Shown: piece by piece, positions 3,674 through 51,813 of the stretch | Position numbering within the stretch: position 1 is the stretch's first letter | Layout: each line of letters opens with the position of its first letter | IMG/VR virus record: IMGVR_UViG_3300023184_008416 | Location: 1 to 64,000 of that record | Source of the DNA: a virus | Reading direction: 5' to 3' (one strand) | DNA length: 64,000 nucleotides | Position numbers and translations under genes: made by a program | Notes under the pieces: generated by a model | Told to the model about the DNA's origin: nothing | The model's input: only the letters and a program-made list of their open reading frames with translations | Database searches by the model: none

Positions 3674-6600
3674 TTAATATTTTTTAAGTACAACGTCGTA
3701 TGACCAACCGACTGGTTTAATTTTGGAAGGATCAAAATTTTGTGTTCGAAGACTGTAATTTTCAAAGTAATAATAATTGTGTTTTGATCTTTCTAACATG
3801 TGCGGTTCAACCATAAAATTGACACCCTTGAACCTTGTTTTCTTGGGCAATAATTGATCAATAAAAGTTGCAATTGAGGTATCAAACCATCTATAAAATT
3901 CAAAAAACTTTTCAAAATTAATTTTTGAAGATAAACGATTAAAATAAACGTCACGTAATTTTTCAATGTCAGGATATTCTGTGCTGAATAAAAGATTCGG
4001 GTCGCCTATGGCGTTATTTAACGTCTCGTAAGAAGCAAATAAATTTACAATATCTTTATTTAAAGAATCTACAAGAGAAAAATCAACTGAAAATCTAAGA
4101 TCATCGATTGGTTCATCATTTCTAGGAACGTAATAAACAGGCGCAGTTCGAGCCCACTTTGAATTTTCTACTATATTTTTATAATCCTGTAATCCTCGAG
4201 GTCTGACTTTGTCGCTAGTTGCAGTTTCGTCAAAATAGGGTGAAAGATTACTGTAATTTATAATTGATGTTTCAAAATTATTAGATCCCGTTAAGTAACC
4301 GGTTCCTGTCATTGAAAATCCATTTTGACTATAATCAAAAAGTGATATGAAACCCGTTGAGCCAGATGCCAATGTTTCTGGTTGTTTTTGAATACAATCG
4401 AGTCTTAATTTTTCAAAACTACCCGTTAATTTATTCACAAAATTATAATGAAGATTGGGTTGATCAACACCTCTAGATTTATGATTTTTTGTATGTTCTA
4501 GAAATTCTGTTTCAGATATTGATTTTGACCAGAATCTAACGTTTGAAATTGTTCCACTAAAATATGCAAGAGAAAAGGAGGGATCATTTAAAAATATTGA
4601 AGATAAATTTATGGTATCATTGGCTCCGATGGCGATATATGAACCTGAAGAATTATAATCCGGTGAAAGAGATCTAAACAAATTTTTGTATATTGTAGGT
4701 GTGTCAGGACTTTCATTAAAAAAGCTGGAGGTTTGATATAGGTGTGTAATTGTGCCGTTTAATTGTTGTGATGCTCTTACAAAGTAAGATGATGAAATTT
4801 CAGAATTAATTTCATCATTTCTGATGCAACCAAAAGAAATCAACCAATGATTTCCATCATATATTCCACTTCCTGATAAATTTAAGGGTAACGACAGCAT
4901 TGGAGCATTAATATCTCCATGAGGTCTAACATATAGAGTTATTTTACAATTATCAAAAATGTCGATCGGAGGAGAAACAATTAAGTTTGTTAGTAACCAA
5001 GGTCCTCCATTTAAAGATCCCGACGATTCAAAACGAACTAAACTTTGTGAAAGCGCTCCGTTCAAACCTGAATCATTTAATAAATCCGTTATAACAGAAT
5101 TACCATCGTTGGCAACATTTTGTTGTTTAAACAACTTATAATTTGATTCAAAAGTCCACGAACCTGAAGTTAAAAGTTTGTCGTTATTAGTGCCTTCTGG
5201 TAAAGGAAAACCGGGTTCTATCCTGGGTGATGATAAATATGAACTTGAGACCAAACTATTTTTATCAAATTTTAAAGCAAATCCAACTTCACTTCTTATA
5301 TCTCGTGTTGAATCAAGGGTTCTTTGTGTTACACCACCGTATTCTCGAATTCTAATTGAATTATCTGGGTCAATTCCCACAGCTCGCAAAAAAGCCTTAA
5401 TTGAATGTTGGGTTCCTTTTGATGCAATTATGTGAGGTAAGCTTACTAAGAGTCTTCTTGTAATTTGGTTCTGTATAAATTTAAGTGTGTATTGTGAAGT
5501 ACTAATGTCGTCTTCGATATTTTCGGCTTCAAGGTATTGTTCAAGTGTAGAATCTGTAAAAAGTGATGGTAAATTTAAACCAAGACTTTTAACTAAAAAT
5601 GGTAAAAAATTATCAGGAACAGTTTCGTTTAATTCATAATCAACAAAATTTAAAGTTTTAAAACTGTCAATGAATAATTTAATTTCATCAAAAAATTTTG
5701 CCCAAATATACAATAACGATAACATTAATTGTTGTGATCCAATTTTACCGGATCCAGGAATACTGTTACCTTCATATGGTTGTATGGCATTACCATCTAT
5801 GTCCAAACCGTATCCCTCTGCTGATGCCCCTTCAAGCAAATAGTGTGGCGGAATTAAACGTGTAATTAAATTTGGGTTTTCAATATCATATAAAGATGAA
5901 CTCATCAATAAATTTGTGTTTAATGAAACCACATCTGGGTGCATTGGAAAAAGAATGGGATTAAATAAATCTTTTTCATACATCATTACATTGTTGTTAA
6001 TGCTATCAAATTTTATTCTAAATGATCCTTGAAAATTTTCAACATAAGAGTGTAAAGAATTTCCAGAGCTGTCTAGAACTATATTATCAATACCACTACC
6101 AGAAAGGAAGGGTTCATTAAATTTATAATACAATTTTAATTCTGGTGTTGCAAAAATTCCCTTTTGAGAATATAAAGATTGTAATTTAGTATCTCGATTT
6201 GAGTGAAATAATCTAAGTTCATCAATCGTTCCAGAAAGTGTTAATTTGGGTGTAAATTTATCACCATTTGAATTTACAACAATTGATGATCCACTTCCTA
6301 TAATAAAGTTTGATGTATCAATATCAAGTTTTTTTAGTTTGTTCCCCGTGCCTGTTTCAGCCAGTGATTCATTGACATAAAACAGACTAGAATCTAGACC
6401 CATGTTAATGGATCTATCTAACGTAACACAAATATGATTATACTTTCCTTTTAAAATTTGGGCAGATGATGAAACGACATGGCTACCTGACACAATTACA
6501 AATTGGCAAGATGCTGAAACAGCAGATAGACTGGGTAATAGATGTAACGAAAATCCCTGTCTTTCGCCATTTATTTTTTGACAAATAATTGATTCGTCAT

Positions 6601-7117
6601 TTGATTCTGTCGGTAATTTAAGTTGCAGTTCAATTGACAAGGGTGTAAACTCATCAGGAGGATTTAGTACTGATACACCACTATTATTTTTTGAAAGATC
6701 GGGAAATAAAGTTCCGGGGGCATCAATAACTGAAATATAACTGCCACCGGTAAAGTGAAGTGAACCACGATTTTTAGGGAAATTTTCTAACACCCAGCGA
6801 TCAAATCCAGTAAGGTTATCTAAGAAAATTTGCACTTCTTTTTTTGAACCGTCAAAAGGAAATTTATTAATTAATTGTTCAAATGCTAAGTTTGTCTTTA
6901 CTTCAGCTGACATGAAAAACGTGTGATTTTCAAATTTTGACCAATCAACGTTTAATTGTTGTGTTGATTTAAGAGGATAACCTTGTGGATCATAAAAAAA
7001 CGATCCTGTTTCGCCAAGACTAGTATCTAAAACTAAGTCTTGAGTTAAGGAATTAAGGTATTTATTTCCGTCAAATTGTTGTTTTATTTTTGACGGTAAA
7101 AAATCTTTTGTTCCCAT
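3674..7117 (-). CDS. Baseplate wedge-like protein (P2 gpI/T4 gp7-like core) with two LamG/ConA-like domains
   Basis: gpI-like core VPDNFLPFLVKSLG...RRLLVSLPHIIASKGTQHSIKAFLRAVGI. LamG-like motifs GKYNHICVTLDRS...LSGTIDELRLF and DGNHWLISF...FSGTISNVRFWSKSIS. Lies downstream of the gp6/J-like gene. Confidence 0.6.
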   Translation of the reverse strand: MGTKDFLPSKIKQQFDGNKYLNSLTQDLVLDTSLGETGSFFYDPQGYPLKSTQQLNVDWSKFENHTFFMSAEVKTNLAFEQLINKFPFDGSKKEVQIFLDNLTGFDRWVLENFPKNRGSLHFTGGSYISVIDAPGTLFPDLSKNNSGVSVLNPPDEFTPLSIELQLKLPTESNDESIICQKINGERQGFSLHLLPSLSAVSASCQFVIVSGSHVVSSSAQILKGKYNHICVTLDRSINMGLDSSLFYVNESLAETGTGNKLKKLDIDTSNFIIGSGSSIVVNSNGDKFTPKLTLSGTIDELRLFHSNRDTKLQSLYSQKGIFATPELKLYYKFNEPFLSGSGIDNIVLDSSGNSLHSYVENFQGSFRIKFDSINNNVMMYEKDLFNPILFPMHPDVVSLNTNLLMSSSLYDIENPNLITRLIPPHYLLEGASAEGYGLDIDGNAIQPYEGNSIPGSGKIGSQQLMLSLLYIWAKFFDEIKLFIDSFKTLNFVDYELNETVPDNFLPFLVKSLGLNLPSLFTDSTLEQYLEAENIEDDISTSQYTLKFIQNQITRRLLVSLPHIIASKGTQHSIKAFLRAVGIDPDNSIRIREYGGVTQRTLDSTRDIRSEVGFALKFDKNSLVSSSYLSSPRIEPGFPLPEGTNNDKLLTSGSWTFESNYKLFKQQNVANDGNSVITDLLNDSGLNGALSQSLVRFESSGSLNGGPWLLTNLIVSPPIDIFDNCKITLYVRPHGDINAPMLSLPLNLSGSGIYDGNHWLISFGCIRNDEINSEISSSYFVRASQQLNGTITHLYQTSSFFNESPDTPTIYKNLFRSLSPDYNSSGSYIAIGANDTINLSSIFLNDPSFSLAYFSGTISNVRFWSKSISETEFLEHTKNHKSRGVDQPNLHYNFVNKLTGSFEKLRLDCIQKQPETLASGSTGFISLFDYSQNGFSMTGTGYLTGSNNFETSIINYSNLSPYFDETATSDKVRPRGLQDYKNIVENSKWARTAPVYYVPRNDEPIDDLRFSVDFSLVDSLNKDIVNLFASYETLNNAIGDPNLLFSTEYPDIEKLRDVYFNRLSSKINFEKFFEFYRWFDTSIATFIDQLLPKKTRFKGVNFMVEPHMLERSKHNYYYFENYSLRTQNFDPSKIKPVGWSYDVVLKKY

Positions 7118-7118
7118 T

Positions 7119-8636
7119 TTATGACACTACCTTAAAAGTAATCGAAGAATTTTTATATATTGTTGATTCATTACCTTCAACTGTCATTATATCAATTGTG
7201 TATGATCTGTTTTGAATTAATGAAAATCCATCTAAATAAAAATACAATCCATTGGAATCTAGGGAAAGTTTTGTAGAATTGTAAGTGGTATCAAATGGGA
7301 TGACAGTGTTAGAACTATCTTCATCCCTGATACTGTAATAACAATTTTTTATAATTTTCCCATAATCATTGATAGCAAATTTAACACTTTGTAATAAAGG
7401 ATTTGTCTGATCAAAAATATGAATCCTGACTAGCATTTTTTCTGATTTTTTTAATTCAATAGGAACTCCATAACATGAAACAGTATATTTTTTTTTATTT
7501 AATGGTGAAGTAAATGTTTGTGGACCACTAAATTTTATTGATGATCCTGTGACAAACGAACTTGATTGATTCAAAGACATCCAAATTGGTGTGAATGTTA
7601 CAGAACCAGAAACATTAAGTTTTTTTTGTAATATTGGATTTAATGAAACATAAACGGGGGCTTGATAAGTTCCACTTAGTTCGAAATTTCCTCTTGAAAA
7701 TTGTGAACCTGTGAAAAAAATATCATAGTTTCCTCCCGATATGGGGGTTGTTAATTTAAGTAGCAGACAATTTGATCCTGTCAAATCATTTGATTCAAAA
7801 TTTATATTTCGGAGACCTTGAGAATCATAATTGTATAAAAACAAACTTCCAGATAGATTGAAATTCATTATTGAAGAATCATCAGAAATAGAATCGTCAA
7901 ATTTAACAATTAATTTAGGTCTGAGAGTCAGATCATAAGCATGTCTAGATGCAAATCTTTTGACAAAATATGTTTGTTGATTACTTTCCACACTTCCGAT
8001 GAAAGATAGTCTGTAACCTTCATCAGGCAATTTATTAATCAACGTAGCAGAAACAATTTTTGTGACATCAAACAATGCATCTTCAGAACCATTTTTGAAA
8101 GATTGTGTTATTTCAAAATTTATATTTTCAGATCCTATGATTCCATTTGTAAAATAATCACAAACATCACCTAATTGACCACCATAGTTTGCACCAGATA
8201 AAATCCATGCATCATTTTCTGATGCTGACAGAAAATTTGCTACATCAAAATCAGTTAGATAAACAATATCTTTACCAATTCCTTCACTAAATGATTTTGA
8301 AAGAGGTGATAAAATTAAACTAAAGTTATTGGGTGTTGTTTGACCACCGTAAACATCTTTTAGATTAACATAACACTTAAAACTTTCATGATTTATGTCA
8401 ATTTTTTTAGAATTTAACAAATTTTTTAAATCTGTTATACCTTCAAAATGTAATAGACTTCTTGAAATTTCTACATTTGGTGTTTGTGTAGCTCCACTGA
8501 TATTAGTAGTAATACCATACAATTTAAAAAGATCAAGAGTAGATGCATAACCTACTGAAGAATTAATACGTTTAACTCCGGATATTACTTTGTCTGTTAT
8601 ATAAGTGTCTTTGTCTGCATCAAATAATTTATACAT
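7119..8636 (-). CDS. Putative virion/baseplate structural protein
   Basis: 505 aa, coupled to the baseplate wedge gene; N-terminal ADKDTYI...SRSLLHF segment typical of beta-sandwich domains; Ser/Gly-rich. Confidence 0.55.
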   Translation of the reverse strand: MYKLFDADKDTYITDKVISGVKRINSSVGYASTLDLFKLYGITTNISGATQTPNVEISRSLLHFEGITDLKNLLNSKKIDINHESFKCYVNLKDVYGGQTTPNNFSLILSPLSKSFSEGIGKDIVYLTDFDVANFLSASENDAWILSGANYGGQLGDVCDYFTNGIIGSENINFEITQSFKNGSEDALFDVTKIVSATLINKLPDEGYRLSFIGSVESNQQTYFVKRFASRHAYDLTLRPKLIVKFDDSISDDSSIMNFNLSGSLFLYNYDSQGLRNINFESNDLTGSNCLLLKLTTPISGGNYDIFFTGSQFSRGNFELSGTYQAPVYVSLNPILQKKLNVSGSVTFTPIWMSLNQSSSFVTGSSIKFSGPQTFTSPLNKKKYTVSCYGVPIELKKSEKMLVRIHIFDQTNPLLQSVKFAINDYGKIIKNCYYSIRDEDSSNTVIPFDTTYNSTKLSLDSNGLYFYLDGFSLIQNRSYTIDIMTVEGNESTIYKNSSITFKVVS

Positions 8637-10504
8637 TAGACGCTCTTTCCTATGATGTTTATGCTGGGATATTTCATTTCAAATATCCCTCCAGGTGGAG
8701 GGACAATTACACCTTTTTGTTTTAAAGTTCCTATCTTGAAATCATAATAAAAATCACTATAAATCTTGTTATTAATTGTGCCAACAAGATTTGTAAATTT
8801 TAATGCACCTGATTCAGGTATAGACAAAACACCATCTATTGAAAATAAGATACTTATTATTTCAGCTGTATAAATAGGTTTGTCTATCTGAGCATTAACA
8901 ACACTAAAATAATTCACAAGTTCAGTATTTATATTTTGTATTACTTGTTCTGTAACATACTCTGGATCTATTATGACAGAATATGACAATTGAAAGTTGA
9001 CTATTGGGCAGTCTAAAATTTCAATTGCGTCTGAAATTAATCTATAGGTGTTAAGATATTTTGCAAGATTTAATTTTAGTGTATCCGTTGTTGTTGTTAG
9101 ATCCCCGTTTTCATCTCTTCCAACGACATAAAGATTTGTACTCAAGGGATTGTCTATATTTTGTCTTATAGCTGCACGAAAAACCCTTCCAAAATTTGAT
9201 GGAATGGTATAAACTCTTGCGAGTAAATCTTCCTTTGTTACTATTCTTTCTTGAGAATTTTTAATTGCAGCTGCTAGATTTTTAAAATCATTAATTGAAG
9301 GAATATTTTCTCCGCCTCTAGCAGGTTCAAGATTAAGAACTTGTGTACTGTTGGTTACGGCTTGACCTAAATTGGGGTCTGGATTTTTGGGGAAAAACAT
9401 TCTGAGGTCAGTTATTTCTCCAATAGAATTTTCAGATACATTGTGTGATGTTCCTCCCCCATATCTATAAGATATTGTGAAGGTGGTGTTTGAAGAAGCT
9501 ACACCTAATGTTCTTGTTGTTAGTAAACTTTGCGGATTTATTCCTTTTCTATTAAATGAATTTGTATTTGGTAAAGGTATGGCAAATTCTGCTGGATCCG
9601 GTATAACGTCATCCTGCAATGAAAGTGCATCCCCACCACCAAATGTTAGGGTTGTTAATCTAGATGCTAAATCAAAGTTTTTTATAAATCTGTAGGGTGC
9701 GGGTATTAATTGAAGTGAGCTTGGTGAAGTATGTGAATCATATCCAAAATTAGGTGTAGCTTTATAAATAACGTCTTCCGCAAGATCATTTACTTCATAA
9801 TAAACGTTACCAAATCCATCAACAACTTTAACTATCTGATAGATGTCGGGGTCTGGTAAAATTATTTTCCTATACGAAACAAATGAACCAACACTGGTGT
9901 AAAATGATTTTTCATTTCCAGACAAAAACTTGCCAGTTTTAGAAACTATGAACGTTTGTACGATTTGATTATTTATCTTACCATTTTTTATAGTTGCGTT
10001 ATAATTTCCATCTGCTTTTTTTTGTGAAAAATCTATATTGTCTATTAATCTAAAACTTATTCCAGATTCTGATGTTACTACAGTTCCTTGTCTTATAATA
10101 GGTAAAGAATTTTCTAGTGGGATGTAAGTTTGATTGCCATTAGGATCTGCACCGATTATTGCAGGAACCTCTATATAAAACGTACAATTTACGCTAGAAG
10201 GAGAAGGTCCATATATTTTTACACCATTATTTTTTAATATGTTAACTATATTGTTAGTTTCAACAGCAGAATCTATATTTAATTCATTAAATTGATGATC
10301 TAAATAGAACGACATATTATCGCCTATAAAGGCTGCCATTTCAAGGAATAATCCTCCCAGGCTGTTTTCAGAAAAATCTGAATTTTTTTCTGAAAAGTAT
10401 AGTCTTGCATATGATAAAATATCTTGTCTTAATGCATCAAAATCTTTTGCAAGATAAGTTCTTTGACGAACTTGTTTTAACACTTCTGAAGGTTTTTTTG
10501 CCAT
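8636..10504 (-). CDS. Baseplate wedge subunit (T4 gp6 / baseplate J-like)
   Basis: YLAKDFDALRQDIL...DFSENSLGGLFLEMAAFIGDNMSFYLDHQFNE N-terminus; ARGGEN...SQERIVTKEDLLAR; GAGG RBS; follows the gp25-like gene. Confidence 0.9.
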   Translation of the reverse strand: MAKKPSEVLKQVRQRTYLAKDFDALRQDILSYARLYFSEKNSDFSENSLGGLFLEMAAFIGDNMSFYLDHQFNELNIDSAVETNNIVNILKNNGVKIYGPSPSSVNCTFYIEVPAIIGADPNGNQTYIPLENSLPIIRQGTVVTSESGISFRLIDNIDFSQKKADGNYNATIKNGKINNQIVQTFIVSKTGKFLSGNEKSFYTSVGSFVSYRKIILPDPDIYQIVKVVDGFGNVYYEVNDLAEDVIYKATPNFGYDSHTSPSSLQLIPAPYRFIKNFDLASRLTTLTFGGGDALSLQDDVIPDPAEFAIPLPNTNSFNRKGINPQSLLTTRTLGVASSNTTFTISYRYGGGTSHNVSENSIGEITDLRMFFPKNPDPNLGQAVTNSTQVLNLEPARGGENIPSINDFKNLAAAIKNSQERIVTKEDLLARVYTIPSNFGRVFRAAIRQNIDNPLSTNLYVVGRDENGDLTTTTDTLKLNLAKYLNTYRLISDAIEILDCPIVNFQLSYSVIIDPEYVTEQVIQNINTELVNYFSVVNAQIDKPIYTAEIISILFSIDGVLSIPESGALKFTNLVGTINNKIYSDFYYDFKIGTLKQKGVIVPPPGGIFEMKYPSINIIGKSV

Positions 10505-15458: not shown

Positions 15459-15741
15459 CGTTGTCGCTCGAAAAGTTAGTTATCTTGTTTGCAATTATTA
15501 ATAAAGCATCACGTGAGGTGGCTATGTCTTTGACCACACCCTTAATGACAGGTTCATCATAGAGAACCGGCACTTGTGAAGCTTCCGAGATCCTGCGATA
15601 ACAACCGTCGATTATGTCCAACGATTCTTCAACCTGATCTTCTAATGAAAAAATTAATTTACTTAACCTATACGTCATCATCCCAAGACCGATTGTGGTG
15701 GCAAAAAAAATAACCGCAATCAGTGACATCAGGATTAGCAC
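15436..15741 (-). CDS. Small membrane-anchored protein
   Basis: N-terminal hydrophobic helix MLILMSLIAVIFFATTIGLGMM followed by a helical acidic region. Confidence 0.6.
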   Translation of the reverse strand: MLILMSLIAVIFFATTIGLGMMTYRLSKLIFSLEDQVEESLDIIDGCYRRISEASQVPVLYDEPVIKGVVKDIATSRDALLIIANKITNFSSDNDAKNTNQ

Positions 15742-16907
15742 AAATATTCTCCTATTTCATTATCCAGGTAACCATTGATTGCTTCTTGAGAATATTCCTG
15801 AATCAATCGAGGAGCCAGTTCACCGGCCCAACCAAGAGGAACGGATTGGGATTCAATGAATTTTTTTGCTTTTCTTTTGAAATCTTCTTCAGAAGGTGTT
15901 GCCCACTTTGCTCCTTGAACAAAAATTTTACCATCAACCCGACTGGGATGAATTTCTTCCAATTTATGATCAATAGAAATAAATTTACCTTTATTCAAGA
16001 AATCAAGATGTCCAGACCATCCCGTTGCAATTACTGGTAATCCGGCTACTGCTGCTTCCAATAATGGTAAACCATAACCTTCTCCGCGAGTAAGTGAAAC
16101 CAAGGCTTTGATTTTAGGATGTCTATATAATGAGTTCATTTCCTCGTCAGACATTGAACCGTGCAAGAGATGGATTTTAGGAAATTGTTTGTTTCCTCTG
16201 ACCTCTTTTAAGAGTTGATCAACTAAATTCGTGACAGCTTTTTTATCAATAGTTGTATTACGACCAATGTTTGTTTTTAATACAATTCCTACATCACTGC
16301 GATCAGCAAAGGTTTCACAAATCCATTTTATTGCAAAAAACGTATTTTTTCTGTCAGAGAACGGATTATTTCCCGTTATTTGAGCAACAATAAGAAAATT
16401 ATTTTCAGCTTTTAAAGATAAATTAAAAGGGGTAACGTTCAATGAATTTTTTAACGCTTCAGGATAAGCTTCAGGAACTACGGAAATTTTTGTTTTTGTT
16501 TGCCCCGTTTGCTCAAAAGTTCTTTTTGAAAATTGAGAAGGAACAACAACGTGTGTCATAGCGTCACAGCATTTTAACCAATCAGGATTACATACATTGG
16601 TTTCTACACCTGCAGTTAATCCGATATTTAATTTCCCAAGATTTGGATTCCATTCATTAGGAAGTTGTAATTGAAGTGTCACATCTGCATCCGACACAGA
16701 ATTATTTGGAACTGTTTTTTCCATTATTTGACCGATCAGACCATCACATGAATCTCTGTTTAATAACCAAGGTGTATCACCCCACATGACTGGTGAGATT
16801 TTTAAATCTATGTTTTTCTTGGTCAATAACCATTTTGTTATTTGACGAGCGTGGACGCCGTATCCTGACTGCGTCAATACAGGTGCAACAAATACAACTG
16901 ATTTCAT
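15735..16907 (-). CDS. Glycosyltransferase, GT-B (GT4-like)
   Basis: SGYGVHAR N-terminal loop; RGEGYGLPLLEAAVAGLPVIATGWSGHLDFL (E-x7-E). Confidence 0.9.
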   Translation of the reverse strand: MKSVVFVAPVLTQSGYGVHARQITKWLLTKKNIDLKISPVMWGDTPWLLNRDSCDGLIGQIMEKTVPNNSVSDADVTLQLQLPNEWNPNLGKLNIGLTAGVETNVCNPDWLKCCDAMTHVVVPSQFSKRTFEQTGQTKTKISVVPEAYPEALKNSLNVTPFNLSLKAENNFLIVAQITGNNPFSDRKNTFFAIKWICETFADRSDVGIVLKTNIGRNTTIDKKAVTNLVDQLLKEVRGNKQFPKIHLLHGSMSDEEMNSLYRHPKIKALVSLTRGEGYGLPLLEAAVAGLPVIATGWSGHLDFLNKGKFISIDHKLEEIHPSRVDGKIFVQGAKWATPSEEDFKRKAKKFIESQSVPLGWAGELAPRLIQEYSQEAINGYLDNEIGEYLC

Positions 16908-18151
16908 AACACCACCTCAGACCATTTGGATTTCTGAGACCACGAGTTCATAGTATCTTGTAAGGTTCTGTCCCATTCACCAATCAATCTGTCTATTGAA
17001 AATTCTTTCATTGCATAATCTCTGCCTCTTAAACCGAGAGTTTTTCGACCTTCTGGACCCATATTGTAAACTTTCATAATTGCATCAGCATAGGTTTTGT
17101 GAGACACAAAATCTTCATAAATGTATGGTACCATTTGATTGCCGACCAAAGAACGAACTTCGGGATCAAGCCCGACGCCATATTCTTCTCCTGTTTCCCA
17201 ATTAATGACTTGACGTGTTAATCCACCTGTCTTGATCGTAATCATCGGTTTACCACAATACAACCCTTCAAGGGTTGACAGACCAAACCCTTCATTGCAA
17301 GATCTATTAAGAACAACGTCAGATGTGTTGTACAACGAAACCATTTCTTCAAATCCAACTCTGTCTTTAGAAAAGAAAACATTACCTCTTAGACCAAAAA
17401 GATCTATGACGTGGTGAAGATTAGGTCCTTCATGATCATTTGGATCTGTGTGCATTACAAGTGTCGCTTTTCTGTGACCGTGGGTTGCTTCAAGTTGGTC
17501 CAAAAATATTTTCCAAGATTGAATAAGATCACTTGGCATTTTTCTACGAGCATTACGGCTGACATATAATCCAACAAAATGATCTGAACGAGCATCACCT
17601 AGCAATTTTCTTTTCACATCTAAGGCTTTGTCTTCAGGAAACGGTTGATAAATGTCTGAGGGTAGTGCGTGAGGAATAAAATTGGTTTTTTCGGGGAATC
17701 TTTCATGAACCATTTTATAAGTTGGATAGTTGATGCAATTGATAAGATCTGTTGATTCATATAATACTTTATTAAAATCTGGCCATGGATCATTGTCCCA
17801 TAGATGATTGTAAACAATAGGACAAATTTGATGAATTTCGTCTTCCATTTCCCATGTCCAAATGAAAAATCGTGGATCAGTAAATAGAAATAGTGCATCT
17901 GGCTTTTCGGTAGCCAGTAAAACTCTTAGCATATTTCTATCACCAAATCCATCGATAGGTTTAATGATGAAGTCAGGATTTACGGACACAGTTTGGTAAT
18001 CGTTGTGTTTTACTGCTGCCCCTAAACACCTGAAAGTATATTTCCCTGTGTTTAATAAACCATTAATTAACCATCTGGCTTGAATTCCAACGCCGCTTGT
18101 CGATAGTGGGTGATCACTAATAAAGAGAATCTTTTTCTTTTTTTCTGTCAT
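16904..18151 (-). CDS. Glycosyltransferase, GT-B (GT4-like)
   Basis: KILFISDHPLSTSGVG; RNARRK; NEGFGLSTLEGLYCGKPMI (E-x7-E). Confidence 0.9.
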   Translation of the reverse strand: MTEKKKKILFISDHPLSTSGVGIQARWLINGLLNTGKYTFRCLGAAVKHNDYQTVSVNPDFIIKPIDGFGDRNMLRVLLATEKPDALFLFTDPRFFIWTWEMEDEIHQICPIVYNHLWDNDPWPDFNKVLYESTDLINCINYPTYKMVHERFPEKTNFIPHALPSDIYQPFPEDKALDVKRKLLGDARSDHFVGLYVSRNARRKMPSDLIQSWKIFLDQLEATHGHRKATLVMHTDPNDHEGPNLHHVIDLFGLRGNVFFSKDRVGFEEMVSLYNTSDVVLNRSCNEGFGLSTLEGLYCGKPMITIKTGGLTRQVINWETGEEYGVGLDPEVRSLVGNQMVPYIYEDFVSHKTYADAIMKVYNMGPEGRKTLGLRGRDYAMKEFSIDRLIGEWDRTLQDTMNSWSQKSKWSEVVL

Positions 18152-19084: not shown

Positions 19085-19891
19085 TTATTTGTTGATGCTT
19101 TGCATGACCCTAGAATATTCTTGAGCAACAAAATTTATATCTATGTGTTGCAAGTTCCAAGGATATTCTGGCCTTATCCATGAATCATTGGGACAAGTCG
19201 TACCGTATGCCCCAACAACCTCGGGTACACCTGGTTGATTGTTGTGAATGATTGGTGTACCTTGAGACAAGGACTCTAAAATTTCATAAGGACAAGACAC
19301 TCGCGTTGAATGACAAATTGTCCAATTTGACATTGAAAACAATTCTAATCTTTCTTGACGAGGTAGACTCGGTACAAAAAAAACATCATTTCCTTTTGCC
19401 TGTCTTAGATCGCCGTCACCATGTAGTATTAAACACGAATTTGGGTTATTGGATTTTAAATTTTTATATGTTTCAATAACTGTTTTTAAAGAATCATCTG
19501 TTGACCAGGCTGGCGATGAAGCTATAAAAATACTCTGATAATCTTTGTGTATTGAAGCAAGTCCATCATTCAAATTCGTTGGTTTGACATTAATATCAAC
19601 TGCTTCATGTATTGTGAACGTATTTTGGTAATTTAAATCATTGCTATTATGTGTTGAAAAAATAACTGCTCTGGGATTAAATCTTAATGATTCTTTGTTA
19701 CAGGTTTTGTCCCATCTTAATAAGACATTATCAGAATTGTTTAATTCAGAATCATTACCAAATGATAAAAGTATGTCAGGATCTTTGTCTACAATTTTAT
19801 GTCCCAGTCCTGAGAGTTGAGGAATCAAAAGTTGTAGAAATAGTCTAGTGTCAGGTTGGGTTAGAGATTCACCAGCTAATTTATAATTCAT
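19085..19891 (-). CDS. Divergent GT-B glycosyltransferase-like protein
   Basis: C-terminal SCPYEILESLSQGTPIIHNNQPGVPEVVG resembles the GT4 nucleotide-binding motif, with the first Glu missing. Confidence 0.65.
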   Translation of the reverse strand: MNYKLAGESLTQPDTRLFLQLLIPQLSGLGHKIVDKDPDILLSFGNDSELNNSDNVLLRWDKTCNKESLRFNPRAVIFSTHNSNDLNYQNTFTIHEAVDINVKPTNLNDGLASIHKDYQSIFIASSPAWSTDDSLKTVIETYKNLKSNNPNSCLILHGDGDLRQAKGNDVFFVPSLPRQERLELFSMSNWTICHSTRVSCPYEILESLSQGTPIIHNNQPGVPEVVGAYGTTCPNDSWIRPEYPWNLQHIDINFVAQEYSRVMQSINK

Positions 19892-20253
19892 GATCGTTTT
19901 TTGACTGTTTCAATTACGGGCACTGCGTATGGTGTACCTTTTAACATCACTGCTAACAATGCTAGTTCTTTTGTTTCTACATTTTCAAGTGAAGCACGTT
20001 GGGTAAAAATATTGGGATCCAATTCTTGGGTGTTGTTTATTGCTACTGAATCATAATAAGCTTGTGCTATCCAATTCAGCGATTCATTTGAAATTTTTAC
20101 CTCAGATGAAACAAACACTTCTTGTAATGATTCAAAAATTGTTCCATAGATTGAAATACACGTCTCTTTGTTTAAAGATTTATCTTTGTATTTAGTGAGT
20201 CTTTCCACCAATAATTTTGAAACAGATTCATGAAAATTTCCATGTTTGCTCAT
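19888..20253 (-). CDS. Hypothetical protein
   Basis: 121-aa ORF with ATGA overlaps on both sides. Confidence 0.65.
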   Translation of the reverse strand: MSKHGNFHESVSKLLVERLTKYKDKSLNKETCISIYGTIFESLQEVFVSSEVKISNESLNWIAQAYYDSVAINNTQELDPNIFTQRASLENVETKELALLAVMLKGTPYAVPVIETVKKRS

Positions 20254-21215
20254 TTGTCATTAACTTTCTTTGTAACTGCTCTGCCAAGCATATGTTCCCA
20301 ATCCCTATTATTTTCAGGTCTTATTTCAAGATTTTTATCCCAAGCTGCCTGTAACATGGTAATCTTGACACCAAGGTCTTTACTGAGACTTTTTAATGCG
20401 TTCAAGTCCTTCGGGAAACAGTGACCTCCAAACCCGCGGACATAGCGACCATCATGAGTTGGAACAGGGCCGGGAACAGACCAATGAGAAGTGCCAAGGC
20501 GTGTGTCAAATTTAGCATATTCAATGACCTTATCATAATCAATGTTTAAACCCTTACCATCGAGCGCCTCACAAATTTGTGCAATTTCATTGGCAAAAGA
20601 AACCTTGACAGCAAGAAACGTATTGATTGTGTACTTCACCATCTCTGCAGTTGTTGACGAAGTTTTGATCAATGGTACCTTTGGGAAGGCAGCCTGGAAA
20701 ACCTGCTTCACCTCGTTGATCCATGGTCGAGGACCACCAAGAATAATGCGATTTTGATTGCGCATGTCATCAAGCGCGTTAGCTTCTGTTAAAAATTCAG
20801 GATTAAATACAACATACAGACCTTGCTCGTTAAATCTTCTATTCCAACGCTCTGTTGATCCAGGTGGAACTGTAGACTTTATGACGGCAATTCTATCTCC
20901 AGGAACTTTTGCTAATTCTTCAAGAGCACCCTCTACAATGGAAAGATCAGCTGATCCATCCTCATGCATTGGTGTTGGTAGACACACGAAGTAAATGTTA
21001 GAAAAACCAGGTGTTCCACCATCTTCATTGTCAAGAATTAATTCTTTGACTGAATCCGGATAACCTGCTACCGGATCTGAATGACTTGGTAGAGCACCTC
21101 TGGCGTATTTACCTGCTTTATCATAAGCATATACATCAAATCCGCGTTCAGAAAACACCGTTGTTAGAGTTCCGCCAACAAAACCTTGACCAATGACGGC
21201 AATTGATTGCTTCAT
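20250..21215 (-). CDS. UDP-glucose/GDP-mannose 6-dehydrogenase family protein (short, no C-terminal domain)
   Basis: GQGFVG, IKSTVPPG, FNPEFL, AEMVKY..NTFLAVKVSFANE and catalytic GFGGHCFPKD. Confidence 0.9.
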   Translation of the reverse strand: MKQSIAVIGQGFVGGTLTTVFSERGFDVYAYDKAGKYARGALPSHSDPVAGYPDSVKELILDNEDGGTPGFSNIYFVCLPTPMHEDGSADLSIVEGALEELAKVPGDRIAVIKSTVPPGSTERWNRRFNEQGLYVVFNPEFLTEANALDDMRNQNRIILGGPRPWINEVKQVFQAAFPKVPLIKTSSTTAEMVKYTINTFLAVKVSFANEIAQICEALDGKGLNIDYDKVIEYAKFDTRLGTSHWSVPGPVPTHDGRYVRGFGGHCFPKDLNALKSLSKDLGVKITMLQAAWDKNLEIRPENNRDWEHMLGRAVTKKVNDK

Positions 21216-22132
21216 TTAATTCCTCTTAAGTTTAAATAATTCTTTTCAAAGAATTCTATTGTTTCCACTAGGCCTTGTTCAAGAGGAGTATAGATAATTT
21301 TGCAACCTAGATTTTTTAGTTTTTCGTTGCTGCTTGGTTTTCTGTGTTGCCCATTTGGTTTGGTGGTATCAAATTTGATGTTGCCATTAAATCCTATTAT
21401 TTTTCCGATGAGAGAAGCAAGGTCACCAATTGATATTTCGTCTGTGCAACCGATGTTTATTGGAAATTCATCATTGTAGTTTTCCGCCAACCACCAAATA
21501 ATTTTTGCTGCATCACGAGCAAAAGTGAATTCACGAAGAGGAGTTCCATCGCCCCACAAGACGACATCCGTGCCATCACGTTTGGCTTCATAAAACTTTC
21601 TAATTAGAGATGGGATTACATGTCCACTATTTAAATCAAAATTATCGTGAAGCCCGTAGAGGTTATTTGGGACGATGGTGATATAATTGCATCCCCATTG
21701 TTGTCTATAGGCTCGTGATTGAACGTCGACCATTCTTTTGGCGTATGCGTAGCCAAAATTAGATTGATGAGGTGGGCCGTTATGAAGTTGATCTTCGGTT
21801 AGTGGATATGAAACATATGCAGCGTCGGGATAAATACAGGTGCTTAAAATAGAAATTAATTTTTTTACTCCGCACTCTTTGGCGCCCTGAAAAACGTTGT
21901 TATTGATGGCTGAGTTAATTTTATAAAAATCTGCAACATAATCAGTGTTGACTTTTACTCCGCCTACTTTTGCGGCGCAATTAATCCATACATCGTTGTT
22001 GCTAGAAATTGCCTGGTGTAATTCTAAGTTTAATCCGTAAGAAGTGGGGGCATAAATTTCTGTTTGTTTTGGTCTTTCACAAATAATTTCATGTCCCAAT
22101 AACCCAAATCCACCAAAAACCGTTGCTTTCAT
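21212..22132 (-). CDS. fcl: GDP-L-fucose synthase
   Basis: [54 protein letters not shown]; adjacent to gmd. Confidence 0.93.
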
Positions 22133-23094
22133 TTTAATTCTCTTTGAAGATCAGCTTCATACATCATTTTTATTAAATCGTTAAAACTTGTTTTTGGTGT
22201 CCATCCCAATTTTTTTCTTGCTTTGCTGGCGTCACCTTGAAGAAAAGGAACTTCATGAGGTCTATATAATCTTGAATCTATCTCAAGATATTTCTTGTAG
22301 TCTAAGTCGGCCAATGCGAATACTCTTTCCACAAATTCTTTGACTGAATAACATTCTCCTGTCGCAATCACATAGTCGTCGGGTTGATCCTGTTGCAACA
22401 TGAGCCACATGGCTTCAACATAGTCTCCTGCAAATCCCCAATCTCTTTTTGCATCCAGGTTACCTAGAAATAATTTGTCTTGCTTACCAAGTTTAATCCT
22501 AGCAACGGCTCTGGTGATTTTTCTGGTGACAAATGTTTCACCTCTGCGAGGGCTCTCGTGATTAAAAAGGATACCAGTAGATGAATGCATTCCATAACCA
22601 ACTCTATAATTTCTCACGAGGTTATGAGAAAATAGTTTTGCGCATGCATAAGGAGATGCGGGAGTCATTCTTGTTTCTTCATTTTTCATGGGATCCATGT
22701 TATCCCCATACATTTCTGAAGATGATGCTTGATAAAATCTAGCATTCGGAACCACATTTCTACAAGCTTCCAATAATCTCATGACTCCCATGGCTACGGA
22801 ATCAACCGTTTCTTCTGGGACATCAAAAGATGTACGAACGTGTGATTGAGCTGCTAAATTATAGATTTCATCTGGTCTATATTCTTGAAGAATTCGATAC
22901 ATGGACCCAACGTCATTCAAACTTCCGTACTGGAGTTTTAAATTTGGATTGTCATATAAATGATCAATATTTGACGTATTGATTACGGATGTTCTTCTTT
23001 TTAGACCAACTACTGTATAACCCTTTTGAAGAAGAAATTCTGCGATGTAAGAGCCGTCTTGACCGGTGATACCAGTAATTAAAGCCTTTTTCAT
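22129..23094 (-). CDS. gmd: GDP-mannose 4,6-dehydratase
   Basis: [72 protein letters not shown]. Confidence 0.97.
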
Positions 23095-24089
23095 GATAAA
23101 ATCTTTTTCACCGCAATGGTTTTTAACTTATTATAGGTTTCCGTAGTAAATGAAAGATAATTTGAGCCCGATTTATAGTGAAGAATAAAATGTTTATCTG
23201 AGCCTGCTTCAGCAATAAATGCAATGTGATATGGATCTGGTAAGTTTGCTTTCTTTTCTTTTATTAAAGAAAGAATTTTTTTTACCATGTCGGAAGTATA
23301 TACATCATATGAACAATAATCCTTTTCATATGGAAAGGATTTCATTTCATTAAACTTTTGGCCGCCAGTGTGTTTAAAATCAACTAAATTCATTTTTTTG
23401 TCAAAATCTAAATGGTAATTTATATTCCCATTTAAGATGTAATGTATTTTTGTTCCAAATTCATTATTAATTTCATCACGAATACTATGTTCTTCTAACA
23501 AAAGAAAATTTAACATTTTATTTTTTAAATAAAAGTGAGTTAGTGCTCCAACGTCCATATTTTCATTATGGATTGGCGCTGGTGTCCATTCAAGATTTTT
23601 CAAATCAGGATTTTTTTCTAAATTTAGAATTACAAAAGCATTCCACATATAGTGAATTTGATGATTTTGTCTATACTGTGGTATGTAGACGACGTCTTTA
23701 TCTACAATTAATTTTTCTAGGTCGACATAATCGATGAAAAACATATCCGAATCAATGATACAAATTTTTTTTTCATTAGTTACATAGTGTTTAAAAGACC
23801 ACATTAATGGATATGAACATGCGACATTTGGTGTAGTGTACCTATTTCCAATAAAATTGGTGACCCCCTGGGTCACTTGCATTTTGGTATCTAGTTTTAT
23901 GTCTACGCATTTAATGTTAAGATTATTGCATACTTTTTTTATTTGTTCATATTGAACTTCATTATCAACAGCATTGTTAAATACTACAAATTCGTAATCA
24001 CACTGCAAATATTTTTGCATTGATTCATACTGCATTTCAATAAAATCGGGTCTTTTATGCGCGTATGTGAATATTGTTATTTTGCTCAT
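23091..24089 (-). CDS. Putative GT-A fold glycosyltransferase
   Basis: [13 protein letters not shown]...[10 protein letters not shown]-terminus and [11 protein letters not shown] (DxD) motif; cluster context. Confidence 0.55.
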
Positions 24090-24934
24090 TTTATCATATG
24101 CCTATAAAGATTTAAATTTTCTAATATGTATGCAGGATAGCTGCTGTCTATGTCAACAATATTGAGTCGATCTCTAAAGAATGGATCAATGTTGTTAACC
24201 ATATTATTTTCTATAGAATTTAATACGTGTGGATTTAACATATCACGTGCAGAATAACTGGTCAATTTTGTCTTAACCATGTCTTTTCCTCCCATGAAAC
24301 TAAAATGCCATCCCCCATTTAGTATTTTTGTGCTTATTTTTTCATCTCCTCTTACTTCGTTAAAAGAAAGATTCTTTAATTTTTTATATGTTCCAATTTT
24401 TGTTCCGTACCAATCGGTTTGTTTTAAAACATTAATATAATAATAATATGTTTTTTGATTTAAAGAATAAATGGTATTTGTATCAAAACTTTCTTTCTGT
24501 TTGATAAGATCAGGATTTGGAATTTCATCTGCGTCTGAGAGCATTATTATATCTTCATCATTACATCCAACTAGAGCTCTTCGTACGCTTTCTTTTTGAA
24601 AGAAATCTCTCCCATAATCAGGTTGTGTGTGTACGTTAAAACGATTTTTTTGTGTCTTAACATAATCATGTATTTGTTCTAAAACAGGATCATTTGTTTT
24701 TGCAAGATTAGCAAAATCAATTGGATTGTCTTCTATGTGATAAGAAATTATTTTTGGTAAAAACCTTGCAAATCGATGTTTATTTTCTTCAAAGAAATAA
24801 GGTTTTGGTTCACCTGAATGTTTGAGGTTTGATTCGACAATCACGAAGTGATCTACTACCTCATCAAGTATGTTTAGTCTCATTTCGAGAATGTCAAGCT
24901 CATTAAAGAAATTAAAACAATCGTATACTTTCAT
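24086..24934 (-). CDS. GT17-like (beta-1,4-N-acetylglucosaminyltransferase family) glycosyltransferase
   Basis: MKVYDCFNFFNELDILEMRL..LDEVVDHFVIVES, IMLSDADEIP, GGWHFSFMGG. The family start is ATG 24934 rather than 25003. Confidence 0.85.
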   Translation of the reverse strand: MKVYDCFNFFNELDILEMRLNILDEVVDHFVIVESNLKHSGEPKPYFFEENKHRFARFLPKIISYHIEDNPIDFANLAKTNDPVLEQIHDYVKTQKNRFNVHTQPDYGRDFFQKESVRRALVGCNDEDIIMLSDADEIPNPDLIKQKESFDTNTIYSLNQKTYYYYINVLKQTDWYGTKIGTYKKLKNLSFNEVRGDEKISTKILNGGWHFSFMGGKDMVKTKLTSYSARDMLNPHVLNSIENNMVNNIDPFFRDRLNIVDIDSSYPAYILENLNLYRHMIK

Positions 24935-24938
24935 AGAT

Positions 24939-25616
24939 TTATTTGCATTTCTTGTTAAACATAAGAATGTTACAACCGCAACCAACGTTTGTATAACTTT
25001 CAATTTTTTCTATAAATGAATCATTAATAGTTGTTAAAAGCGGAGCGCTCTCTGTATTTGTTAATGGGTGATTGATGTCTTTAACAAAATAAAATTCATG
25101 GGATGTTGCATACGTATCACATATATTTTTTATGTTTGTTTTTGAACGATCCCAAACTTGACCATACTCAAACTGAATATATTTTATATTATTTATTATT
25201 TCCGTGTAACACAGGATTTCTGGTTCACAACCTTCAATATCCATTTTTAAGAAGTCGATATTTTGGATATTTTTCTCAATAAGAATTTCATCAAATTTAC
25301 GAATATCACACTCAATTATATTTCCCCAAGGGCGATATATTGATTCGCTTGCTTCACCGTACTTAACTTTGGCATTTTTGTTTGATAATCCGATGTTATA
25401 AAGATTTATTTTGTGTTTTAGTGAGGAAATTGTGTTGATTAATTTATCAACATGTTTTTGATTGATATCAAATAAATGAAAATTAGCATTTGGTTTAATG
25501 AAATAATAATCTAGATTATCTCGACATCCTATGTCAACAACAACATCAATGTTATTCTTAAATTTTTCAAATAAACTTAATTCATAAGAATTTTGTTTAA
25601 TCATAAAATTACTCAA
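24939..25616 (-). CDS. FkbM-family methyltransferase
   Basis: VVVDIGCR, NIGLSN, IDFLKMDIEGCEPEIL, YIQFEYG. Confidence 0.85.
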   Translation of the reverse strand: MSNFMIKQNSYELSLFEKFKNNIDVVVDIGCRDNLDYYFIKPNANFHLFDINQKHVDKLINTISSLKHKINLYNIGLSNKNAKVKYGEASESIYRPWGNIIECDIRKFDEILIEKNIQNIDFLKMDIEGCEPEILCYTEIINNIKYIQFEYGQVWDRSKTNIKNICDTYATSHEFYFVKDINHPLTNTESAPLLTTINDSFIEKIESYTNVGCGCNILMFNKKCK

Positions 25617-26269: not shown

Positions 26270-26280
26270 TGTAACCTCTT

Positions 26281-27851: not shown

Positions 27852-27894
27852 TTGATAAGTGTACTAAATTTAGTCTTTAATGTTTACTTTAATA

Positions 27895-29971: not shown

Positions 29972-30000
29972 TTGATTATATTTTTTATCAATGAATATGT

Positions 30001-32152: not shown

Positions 32153-32153
32153 T

Positions 32154-49821: not shown

Positions 49822-49904
49822 ATTTAATCATTTAACCTAAGCAATATTGTTGATATTTTGAGGTTAAAATAATCGAAAAATTGTATTTAAGGTAACAGGA
49901 CAAT

Positions 49905-50603: not shown

Positions 50604-50615
50604 TAGGAAAATGAA

Positions 50616-51809: not shown

Positions 51810-51813
51810 TGTT

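Follow-up and report, generated by a model that had tools for sequence, protein, structure and literature searches.

The window, meaning the whole stretch of 64,000 nucleotides that was analysed (positions 1 to 64,000 of IMG/VR virus record IMGVR_UViG_3300023184_008416, an uncultured giant phage), contains a group of baseplate genes, a large cluster of soluble glycosyltransferase (GT) genes and several proteins rich in the tripeptide [ST]-G-[ST]. These are listed in Table 1, together with two further motif-rich proteins from elsewhere in the genome.

Table 1. Motif-rich proteins, baseplate context and glycosyltransferase genes of the phage.
Feature	Coordinates	Strand	Basis
1147-aa protein, enriched	3674..7117	-	counts
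505-aa protein, enriched	7119..8636	-	counts
gp6/baseplate-J-type wedge subunit	8636..10504	-	phrog_219 baseplate wedge subunit, E=1e-11
GT4a	15735-16907	-	Pfam Glycos_transf_1
GT4b	16904-18151	-	Pfam Glycos_transf_1; tandem with GT4a (pair 15735..18151)
Rest of soluble glycan-building cluster	19085..34040	-	Pfam
397-aa putative virion protein, enriched	50616..51809	+	counts
787-aa protein, enriched	51814..54177	+	counts
Major head protein, enriched	70780-72681 (genome coordinates)
One of two sheath paralogues, enriched	94375-97401 (genome coordinates)

Besides its PHROG match, the product of the gp6-like gene has a tblastn match to the 'baseplate wedge protein' of phage immuto. The gene order gp6-like, 505-aa, 1147-aa is kept in immuto, Mel-JY01 and LR756508, and in T4 gp6 is followed by gp7. 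The 1147-aa protein, encoded two genes past the gp6-like gene, belongs to the baseplate periphery and corresponds to gp7 by position only; its family HMM matches no T4 ORF at E<=0.01. Searches of PHROGs gave no match for the 1147-, 505-, 397-, 787- and 393-aa proteins, and the reference phage collection holds no close relative of this phage.

By BLASTP, the GT4a/GT4b pair is 30-34% identical to two genes that are likewise neighbours in immuto (49128-51883) and in Mel-JY01 (84024-86302); no other GT of the cluster has orthologues in these two phages. The rest of the cluster encodes a third GT4, a UDP-Glc dehydrogenase, an epimerase, a GDP-mannose 4,6-dehydratase, a GT17, two GT11, three GT2, and FkbM and other methyltransferases. 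No ORF of the cluster contains a 19-residue hydrophobic segment above 1.6. The fucose part resembles that of P-SSM2 (GMD 54%, GT11 40% identical).

Motif enrichment

Six proteins carry [ST]-G-[ST] four to seven times above chance, and we confirm that this enrichment is real. The initial annotation had counted SGS and TGS by hand and proposed a possible glycosylation sequon confined to structural proteins; every one of its counts was reproduced by our recount. The 1147-aa ORF holds 11 [ST]GS and four SGT/TGT, together 15 [ST]G[ST], where 1.5 and 2.2 are expected, and the observed count was reached in 0 of 2000 shuffles. Five [ST]GS (six sites with SGT) fall within residues 262-365 of the 505-aa ORF, against 0.8 and 1.3 expected (p=0.001). 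The 397-aa and 787-aa proteins each have four [ST]GS and six [ST]G[ST], against 0.5 and 0.9 expected in the former and 1.0 and 1.6 in the latter. Two sites in the ORF at 41431-42612, with 0.4 expected, do not reach significance (p=0.06), and the 1040-aa and 546-aa ORFs, whose names SbcCD and terminase come from the initial annotation only, have zero and one.

The six proteins account for the entire excess, which, contrary to the initial annotation, is not spread over structural proteins generally. The portal, the second sheath paralogue, the 1803-aa and 1181-aa large ORFs and the gp6-like wedge are at or below expectation. The wedge (0 sites here; 0.4 in its family versus 0.85 expected) is unenriched and so serves as an internal negative control, in addition to setting the baseplate context. 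The excess is present in at least four unrelated folds of one phage, namely LamG, Ig-like, head protein and sheath.

The excess in the 1147-aa protein withstands composition control, under global shuffles as well as shuffles within blocks of 20, 40 and 100 residues (15 observed versus 2.4-2.7 expected in block shuffles). As a composition-free control, we set the order X-G-X against the permuted orders G-X-X and X-X-G, which gave 45, 10 and 14 occurrences in the six enriched proteins versus 64, 62 and 65 in the remainder of the genome. The motif is two-sided and hydroxyl-specific, with [ST]G[ST] at 4.8 times expectation versus about 1.1 times with Asn/Asp flanks. Residues -3 to -1 before the motif are 53-62% hydrophobic, and no wider consensus was found beyond this. 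A motif at the DNA level is ruled out, because the nine-base words at the 15 sites of the 1147-aa ORF all differ.

Predicted folds and conservation

The 1147-aa protein contains two LamG/pentraxin-type jelly rolls, at about residues 145-310 and 650-865. Pfam Laminin_G_3 (PF13385) matches residues 145-306 (38.1 bits versus a cut-off of 27.6, E=2.2e-9), and the second jelly roll is assigned by fold alone. With the AF2 model (pLDDT 71), Foldseek returned probability 1.00 to neurexin LNS, laminin LG, PTX3, PAPP-A and perlecan LG3, and multi-LNS chains align over both sandwich regions. In the structured parts of this model, 11 of 14 sites overlap or abut a strand end. S210-G-S forms a two-residue hairpin joining strands 201-210 and 213-223 (pLDDT about 95), sites 295, 651, 824 and 854 open strands, and 699 and 918 close them. 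As modelled, the sites thus sit at hairpins and strand ends, which are usually exposed.

The motif is conserved among 120 homologues of 45-56% identity. Eight of the 15 sites (210, 275, 295, 651, 699, 824, 898 and 937) lie in conserved family columns, and S651-G-S-W is invariant across all 120. Nine columns filled in at least 50% of the 121 sequences contribute 7.8 sites per protein; rarely filled columns contribute 3.0 versus 2.5 expected, which leaves no lineage-specific surplus.

The 505-aa protein matches no Pfam family and is modelled by AF2 (pLDDT 81, pTM 0.82) as Ig/FN3-like beta-sandwiches, with scFv/diabody tandem Ig domains, contactin FN1-3 and CbhA FN3 as top Foldseek matches. Five of its six sites overlap strands in the model; four (286, 309, 343 and 363) are conserved, and the excess is repeated in 79 homologues (6.6 sites in the family versus 1.5 expected). 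The motif-rich segment, an Ig-like insertion at about residues 262-372, is absent from the shorter orthologues in immuto, Mel-JY01 and LR756508, to which HMM matches skip roughly positions 242-381.

For the 397-aa protein, which has no Pfam match, eight homologues carry 3-8 sites versus 1.2 expected, and the central Gly often swaps with Ala (SGS/SAS) in relatives while both serines are retained. The 787-aa protein has a weak, sub-threshold LamG_3 match at 220-305 (19.8 bits), and its counterparts in relatives have a C-terminal region in common with the 397-aa protein.

Comparison across phages

We scored a panel of 14 phages for ordered excess, that is X-G-X versus its permuted orders. The three highest scores belong to precisely those phages that have the GT4 pair: this phage, the Flavobacterium phage vB_FspM_immuto (host Flavobacterium sp. 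LMO8) and the Microcystis phage Mel-JY01; a literature search on Mel-JY01 found no publication. Immuto and Mel-JY01 are cultured, distant relatives that both show the excess, the motif recurring in segments of their orthologues that are non-homologous to those of this phage. Their motif-bearing ORFs include 85576-89373, 92327-93400, 96965-100775 and 135031-136152 in immuto, and 165362-166522 and 167764-171774 in Mel-JY01. All three belong to one baseplate lineage, and HMMs of the GT4 pair match only these three in the panel. LR756508 has GT4b, lacks GT4a and shows a weak excess.

The initial annotation had tied the motif to the presence of a large soluble GT cluster, and this link did not stand. 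P-SSM2 carries a homologous fucose-type GT island without the GT4 pair, yet its ordered ratio is 1.07, with no excess; a single ORF of this phage scored as 'significant', but it is rich in S, T and G, and local composition accounts for most of its count. The fucose-type island as such is thereby ruled out as the cause of the motif. S-PM2 and A511, in which no GT is recognisable, show a mild ordered excess of 1.34 and 1.24. Searches with GT8, Glyco_trans_1_4 and Glyco_tranf_2_3 for missed GTs in the GT-less phages changed nothing, and no diverged GT4 pair was found in S-PM2, HTVC008M or A511 even at E<=10.

No excess is present in T4, KVP40, phiKZ, BCD7 and Myrna (ordered ratios 0.83-1.08), and 25 virion proteins of T4 hold 15 sites versus 18.6 expected. 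These phages rule out a generic property of virion or beta-rich proteins. We also sought relatives without GT genes, and found GTs in 10 of 11 long contigs and in immuto and Mel-JY01; as all relatives that allowed a judgement carry GTs, this comparison has little power.

Discussion

How might a hydroxyl-glycine-hydroxyl tripeptide become fixed in so few proteins of one phage lineage? Enrichment, specificity, conservation and position in predicted secondary structure are direct observations. The reading that we put forward, with confidence that is about evenly balanced, is that [ST]-G-[ST] is a conserved structural strand-edge motif of beta-sandwich domains. The motifs would be conserved structural elements of the beta-sandwich modules in outer baseplate and fibre-type proteins of this lineage, the modules being the two LamG/pentraxin-type jelly rolls of the 1147-aa protein and the Ig/FN3-like sandwiches of the 505-aa protein. 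How the side chains are arranged, and why hydroxyls are preferred, we infer as follows. Every motif would straddle the end of a beta-strand or occupy a bent strand, with the Gly providing a position without side-chain room, where the chain turns tightly, bulges or packs inwards. The flanking pair would face the opposite way and be restricted to small residues with a hydroxyl group, which strands tolerate and which can cap them, and Asn and Asp, as poor strand formers, would be disfavoured flanks. Sites may have been fixed early and then inherited within families, in which case the enrichment would amount to about nine frozen positions in the 1147-aa family and four in the 505-aa family, not to a sequon maintained by turnover.

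Nine fixed columns without a lineage-specific surplus are what a structural motif predicts. The family profile 'tlSGtldelRvf' aligns with human PTX3 'AFSGRLTGFNIW' and the family hairpin 'vvSGSv' with PTX3 'VVGGEEN', and by this alignment these Gly and turn positions belong to the fold. The exchange of the central Gly with Ala in relatives of the 397-aa protein fits an inward-facing small residue, and the mild ordered excess in S-PM2 and A511, without recognisable GTs, also counts for the structural reading. Several observations count against it. A turn or bulge would not normally require so strict a choice of hydroxyl residues on both sides, the motif spreads over at least four unrelated folds within one phage, the beta-rich virion proteins of T4, KVP40, phiKZ, BCD7 and Myrna lack the excess, and enrichment is highest in just those three phages that have the GT4 pair. 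The orthologues in immuto and Mel-JY01 also show the excess in segments that are not homologous to those here, which points to a cause at the level of the lineage, not to a quirk of a single fold.

A tentative possibility is that the motifs are acceptors for cytoplasmic O-glycosylation of outer virion proteins, in which the GT4 pair would add the first sugar to Ser/Thr at the tip of a strand-turn-strand element and variable GTs would extend it to a methylated, fucose-containing coat. Such acceptors would suit a motif that is ordered, two-sided and hydroxyl-specific, carriers that include outward-facing proteins (baseplate periphery, head, sheath) next to an inner gp6-like wedge that has none, and cluster proteins without hydrophobic segments; precedents exist in TibC/TibA, chloroviruses and mycobacteriophages. 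The pair alone is kept adjacent in immuto and Mel-JY01, the only panel phages that share both it and the excess, the latter partly in non-homologous segments. Should the motif be an acceptor, these two GTs are therefore the candidates for modifying it. LR756508, without GT4a, has only a weak excess. However, because the three phages are one baseplate lineage, the association of the pair with the motif rests on roughly one independent event. Glycosylation is also at odds with P-SSM2 (1.07) and GT-less S-PM2 (1.34), and with the lack of surplus among lineage-specific sites, unlike glycan shields, which turn over. The GT4 pair moreover resembles generic GT4 families alone: the nearest (MshA, BshA, TreT, MSMEG_0565) score far below cut-offs, the nearest PDB entries are 3c4q, 2x6q and chlorovirus B736L (3oy2), and no match was found to families known to glycosylate proteins, so that profile and PDB comparisons leave a GtfA/GtfB-like or BAHT-like identity unsupported. 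Published work has interpreted host recognition clusters and GT sets of such aquatic myophages as modifying the host O-chain (PMC7029224). In its fullest form, which we regard as doubtful, the strand-end motifs would be attachment sites of a phage-made glycan coat, started in the cytoplasm at beta-hairpin tips by the conserved GT4 pair and built by swappable island GTs into a strain-specific, methylated, fucose-containing chain.

Unlikely, in our estimate, is that the paired hydroxyls serve another role shared by outer virion proteins, such as baseplate subunit contacts, carbohydrate binding by lectin-like domains or edge-strand protection against aggregation. In favour are the lectin-type folds of the domains, the restriction of the excess to particular proteins and the invariance of S651-G-S-W in 120 homologues, which exceeds the usual conservation of a surface turn; against it, the sites occur at many strand ends in different folds and form no single pocket or face in the secondary-structure maps. 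That composition, low complexity, internal repeats or post hoc motif choice produced the enrichment is highly improbable. The motif class was picked after looking at the data, and SGS, although the top over-represented tripeptide of the 1147-aa protein (8 versus 1.03 expected), reaches only about 0.1 in that protein alone once all 8000 tripeptides are corrected for. Most of the signal disappears under a first-order Markov control, which is uninformative because the SG and GS dipeptides themselves carry that signal. Local block shuffles and same-composition permutations, however, leave the excess in place and rule out composition and low complexity, and the excess reappears in both sets of homologues (120 and 79 sequences, about 45% identity) as well as in two cultured phages.

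Islands of GT genes without export genes have long been known in large aquatic phages. A short, ordered and conserved motif in few virion proteins, common to two cultured phages with the GT4 pair, makes the targets of such enzymes accessible to bench work. If the sites are glycosylated, they would define a new O-glycosylation sequon of bacterial viruses and a glycan coat on the virion, giving a function to exporter-free 'LPS-type' GT islands; if they are not, they would represent a clean strand-edge structural motif that is apt to mislead sequence-based sequon hunting.

Such 'LPS-type' islands of cyano- and pelagimyophages place GT and deoxy-sugar genes beside tail and baseplate genes, as in this phage. 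The GMD, the epimerase and one GT11 are 40-54% identical to genes of P-SSM2, which differs in having neither the GT4 pair nor the ordered motif excess. In mycobacteriophages, capsid and tail-tube proteins are reportedly glycosylated close to their C-termini (Freeman et al. 2023). Both chloroviruses (PMC9614988, PMC7019647) and mycobacteriophages (PMC11256854) are described as glycosylating their virions with their own GTs, and the likeness to this phage lies in soluble virus-encoded GTs without export machinery. Chlorovirus glycans also contain fucose and methylated sugars, like those that this phage's cluster could make; they are N-linked at atypical sites, and no S-G-S motif is used in either system as described. 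The model for a sequon comes from the bacterial autotransporter heptosyltransferases (BAHT) of the TibC/TibA and Aah/AIDA-I systems, in which a cytoplasmic enzyme modifies Ser in short inter-strand loops of a surface protein rich in beta-strands. The loop residues of the TibA beta-helix that TibC glycosylates are serines and not threonines, and one of the sites reads QN-S-GG (PMC4358343). In contrast, this phage encodes no BAHT-type enzyme, its conserved GTs belong with generic GT4 families, and a sandwich domain, not a beta-helix, would be the substrate.

For the structural reading, the closest parallels are the folds themselves. The 1147-aa protein shares the LamG/LNS/pentraxin fold (PF13385; PTX3, neurexin, laminin LG), with a Pfam match over threshold. 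PTX3 'FSGRL' aligns with the conserved 'x-S-G-x-hydrophobic' strand that precedes the domain's C-terminal end in the 1147-aa family. Unlike PTX3, this family has fixed Ser/Thr on either side of Gly at eight or nine positions, of which PTX3 has no more than the S-G of site 295 and a Gly-containing turn at 210, with Q-E-K at 275. Antibody light-chain framework 3 'RFSGSGSGTDFTL' has invariant hydrophobic-S-G-S/T runs at the strand edge of an Ig sandwich, where they are structural and not known to be glycosylated. The motifs of the 505-aa protein differ from these runs in being single tripeptides about 20-24 residues apart; its best fold matches are scFv/diabody, and the two are alike in their Ig-type sandwich, a likeness by fold and not by sequence homology.

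Results

The [ST]-G-[ST] tripeptide, which the initial annotation had proposed as an O-glycan acceptor sequon on virion proteins, is present in excess in this phage, and the excess is more specific than was described there. A recount reproduced all of the hand counts. The 1147-aa protein contains 11 [ST]GS (1.5 expected) and 15 [ST]G[ST] (2.2 expected), a level reached by 0 of 2000 shuffles, and SGS is its most over-represented tripeptide of all. The 505-, 397- and 787-aa proteins have six [ST]G[ST] each against 0.9-1.6 expected, and the 1040-aa ORF previously named SbcCD has none. Composition does not account for these numbers, as the excess stays in global shuffles, in block shuffles of 20, 40 or 100 residues, and in an ordering control of X-G-X against G-X-X and X-X-G (X = Ser/Thr), which uses the same residues and needs no composition model. 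These orders occur 45, 10 and 14 times in the six enriched proteins, and 64, 62 and 65 times in the rest of the genome. Codons at the motif sites differ from one another; that the excess is an artefact is extremely improbable.

Six proteins hold the whole genome-wide excess, with 45 sites observed against about 10 expected (remainder: 64 against about 57): the 1147-, 505-, 397- and 787-aa proteins, the major head protein and one of two tandem sheath paralogues. "Structural proteins", the class to which enrichment had been ascribed, is therefore too broad a label; the claim holds for these six, whereas the gp6-like wedge, the portal and the other sheath paralogue are at or below expectation, as are the 1803-aa and 1181-aa ORFs. 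Only the second sheath paralogue is enriched (6 sites versus 1.9 expected; 3 versus 1.7 in the first). In the head protein the phrog_138 match covers residues 342-615 only, so that about 340 residues extend N-terminally of it, and five of the six motif sites (158, 215, 301, 336, 352) are within this extension or at its border. Residues about 305-397 of the 397-aa protein match the larger neighbouring ORF (the roughly 790-875-aa proteins of relatives) at 23-31% identity (L229-L239), and the two enriched genes at 50616-54177 (+) are thus partial paralogues. In two related contigs (G001, G008) the 397-aa match returns as two separate pieces inside one 423-438-aa open frame. The 934-aa ORF downstream of the 1147-aa gene, which has relatives at only about 28% identity, contains six S-G-T, all in one orientation, and lacks [ST]-G-S; six sites versus 3.3 expected is not significant (p=0.10).

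The window covers the first 64 kb of one viral contig of 161.9 kb. Because the CheckV completeness of this contig is about 45% and relatives that share its baseplate gene measure 309-369 kb (up to 369 kb with terminal repeats), this 162-kb contig represents about half of a jumbo-phage genome, and gene absences from it are therefore provisional. No close relative was found in the reference phage collection. On the minus strand, the gp6-like wedge gene is followed by the 505-aa and then the 1147-aa ORF.

Coordinates of the features discussed (window and genome refer to this phage)
Feature	Position	Strand	Remarks
934-aa ORF	window 1-2802	-	3'-open
1147-aa ORF	window 3674-7117	-	
505-aa ORF	window 7119-8636	-	
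gp6/baseplate-J-type wedge	window 8636-10504	-	phrog_219; 31% identity to immuto "baseplate wedge protein"
101-aa ORF	window 15436-15741	-	
GT cluster	window 15.7-34 kb		three GT4, three GT2, two GT11, GT17, GDP-mannose dehydratase, epimerase, UDP-glucose dehydrogenase, several methyltransferases
GT4a	window 15735-16907	-	
GT4b	window 16904-18151	-	
PD-(D/E)XK nuclease	window 18231-19058	-	PF12705, E=1e-16
Methyltransferase	window 25613-26269		
397-aa ORF	window 50616-51809	+	
787-aa ORF	window 51814-54177	+	
Major head protein, 633 aa	genome 70780-72681 (L083:6780-8681)		phrog_138
Tandem tail-sheath paralogues, about 1010 aa each	genome 91282-94329 and 94375-97401 (L084:7282-13401)		phrog_23
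GT4b orthologue	LR756508 305435-306712		33% identity, E=2e-40
805-aa ORF	Mel-JY01 (PP395634) 635-3052		
Roughly 1230-aa ORF	Mel-JY01 (PP395634) 4747-8430		

The 1147-aa family comprises 555 proteins at E<=0.001, and its best 120 (44-56% identity) average 12.0 sites against 2.5 expected. Pooled with the query, these 120 homologues show [ST]-G-[ST] at 4.8 times expectation and [ST]-G-[ND], [ND]-G-[ST] and [ND]-G-[ND] each at about 1.1 times; the signal is two-sided and hydroxyl-specific. Proteome-wide, Gly is the only middle residue that stands out in [ST]-x-[ST]; the three positions preceding the motif are 53-62% hydrophobic, and no wider consensus surrounds it. Across the best 120 of 555, the same alignment columns keep sites 210, 275, 295, 651, 699, 824, 898 and 937, and S651-G-S-W is invariant. 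Nine columns that are filled in 50% or more of the sequences explain the family excess (7.8 sites per protein); rarely occupied columns have 3.0 sites per protein versus 2.5 expected, so that the motif itself is not under ongoing selection. The 505-aa family has 6.6 sites versus 1.5 expected, four of them conserved, unlike the gp6-like family next door (0.4 versus 0.85), and the head-protein family has 4-8 versus 2.1, three of them invariant. At four sites of the 397-aa family the central Gly is often swapped with Ala (SGS/SAS, TAS) while both serines are kept; conservation is thus stronger for the two hydroxyl residues than for the Gly between them.

As modelled by AlphaFold (pLDDT 71), the 1147-aa protein contains two jelly rolls, which best match neurexin LNS, laminin LG, PTX3 and PAPP-A LamG domains; the first has a Pfam LamG_3 match above threshold. 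In this model, 14 sites fall in structured regions, and 11 of these are predicted to lie across or directly beside a strand end; S210-G-S would form a two-residue hairpin (local pLDDT about 95). The 505-aa model (pLDDT 81, pTM 0.82) is a predicted chain of Ig/FN3-like sandwiches in which five of six sites would overlap strands. Alignment of the family profile to the pentraxin domain of human PTX3 is weak but consistent: it pairs "tlSGtldelRvf" with "AFSGRLTGFNIW" and the hairpin "vvSGSv" with "VVGGEEN". The Gly/turn positions are therefore features of the fold, and the paired hydroxyl flanks are peculiar to the 1147-aa family.

The glycosyltransferase (GT) cluster invoked for the sequon is real. 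Its ORFs all lack a hydrophobic stretch of the length that a membrane helix requires, and the adjacent genes GT4a and GT4b (the GT4 pair) show no likeness to a GT family with known protein substrates. GT2 genes are present in 10 of 11 long contigs from relatives; the remaining contig is a fragment with an estimated completeness of 23%, and the comparison with relatives thus covered GT-bearing phages. The nuclease gene separates the GT4 pair from the third GT4. Just downstream of the pair, the 101-aa ORF is the only one scanned in 15.4-34 kb to contain a strongly hydrophobic segment, residues 1-19 (Kyte-Doolittle 2.52), a possible signal or membrane anchor.

We scored 14 whole genomes, 13 named phages and this one, by the composition-free ordering ratio. 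It is 1.44 for this phage, 1.72 for Flavobacterium phage immuto and 1.89 for Microcystis phage Mel-JY01, both distant relatives; 1.34 for S-PM2, 1.24 for A511 and 1.20 for HTVC008M; 1.08 for phiKZ, 1.07 for P-SSM2 and SPO1, and 1.04 for KVP40; and 0.94 for Corndog, 0.91 for BCD7, 0.87 for Myrna and 0.83 for T4. About nine ORFs each in immuto and Mel-JY01 pass the local-shuffle test, including the two after the gp6-like gene; these two are genuinely homologous to the 505- and 1147-aa families, with homology that omits the motif-rich segments of this phage. The GT4 pair, adjacent in all three, represents the only GTs common to this phage, immuto and Mel-JY01, and its HMMs have no match elsewhere in the panel. 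Searches for GT8, Glyco_trans_1_4 and Glyco_tranf_2_3 left the set of GT-less phages unchanged. The fucose part of the island is also present in P-SSM2 (GDP-mannose 4,6-dehydratase 54% identical), yet this phage has no ordered excess. LR756508, an uncultured 484-kb phage and more distant member of the baseplate lineage, encodes a GT4b orthologue about 200 kb from the baseplate genes and has no GT4a and no GT2; its baseplate enrichment is weak (505-aa orthologue 0 sites, 1147-aa orthologue 5 versus 1.5 expected). In Mel-JY01, an extremely Ser/Thr/Gly-rich 805-aa ORF with 112 [ST]G[ST] sites adjoins the roughly 1230-aa ORF, which carries a GT4 domain and a methyltransferase related to that of the window; the former may serve as a dedicated serine-rich substrate of the adjacent transferase.

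Discussion

What is the role of the motif in these proteins? We give about an even chance to its being a structural feature of strand ends. The strand-end position, the fixed columns and the lack of a surplus of lineage-specific sites speak for this, as do the Gly positions common with a human pentraxin, the mild excess of phages that lack GTs, and the finding of no GT from a family with known protein substrates. A glycan acceptor site seems distinctly less probable. The strict hydroxyl preference on both sides, the presence of the motif in unrelated folds of a single phage, its reappearance in distant orthologues in segments that are not homologous, the T4-type and other controls without excess and the coincidence of the excess with the GT4 pair point to it; however, the three enriched phages are one lineage, so that the association with the GT4 pair rests on roughly one independent event. 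Location in a beta-turn is no argument against an acceptor, because TibC glycosylates, in the cytoplasm, a Ser in the QN-S-GG loop of the TibA beta-helix (PMC4358343). Some other function shared by the motif-bearing proteins is improbable. The choice between a structural feature and an acceptor site lies beyond computation, and as immuto and Mel-JY01 are cultured, the virion chemistry of the motif is within reach.

GT sets of this kind in pelagimyophages have been interpreted as serving host O-chain modification (PMC7029224). The order of the gp6-like gene and the ORFs after it matches that of T4, in which gp6 is followed by gp7. Framework 3 of antibody light chains carries an invariant "RFSGSGSGTDFTL", which is non-glycosylated and represents the same pattern in an Ig sandwich.
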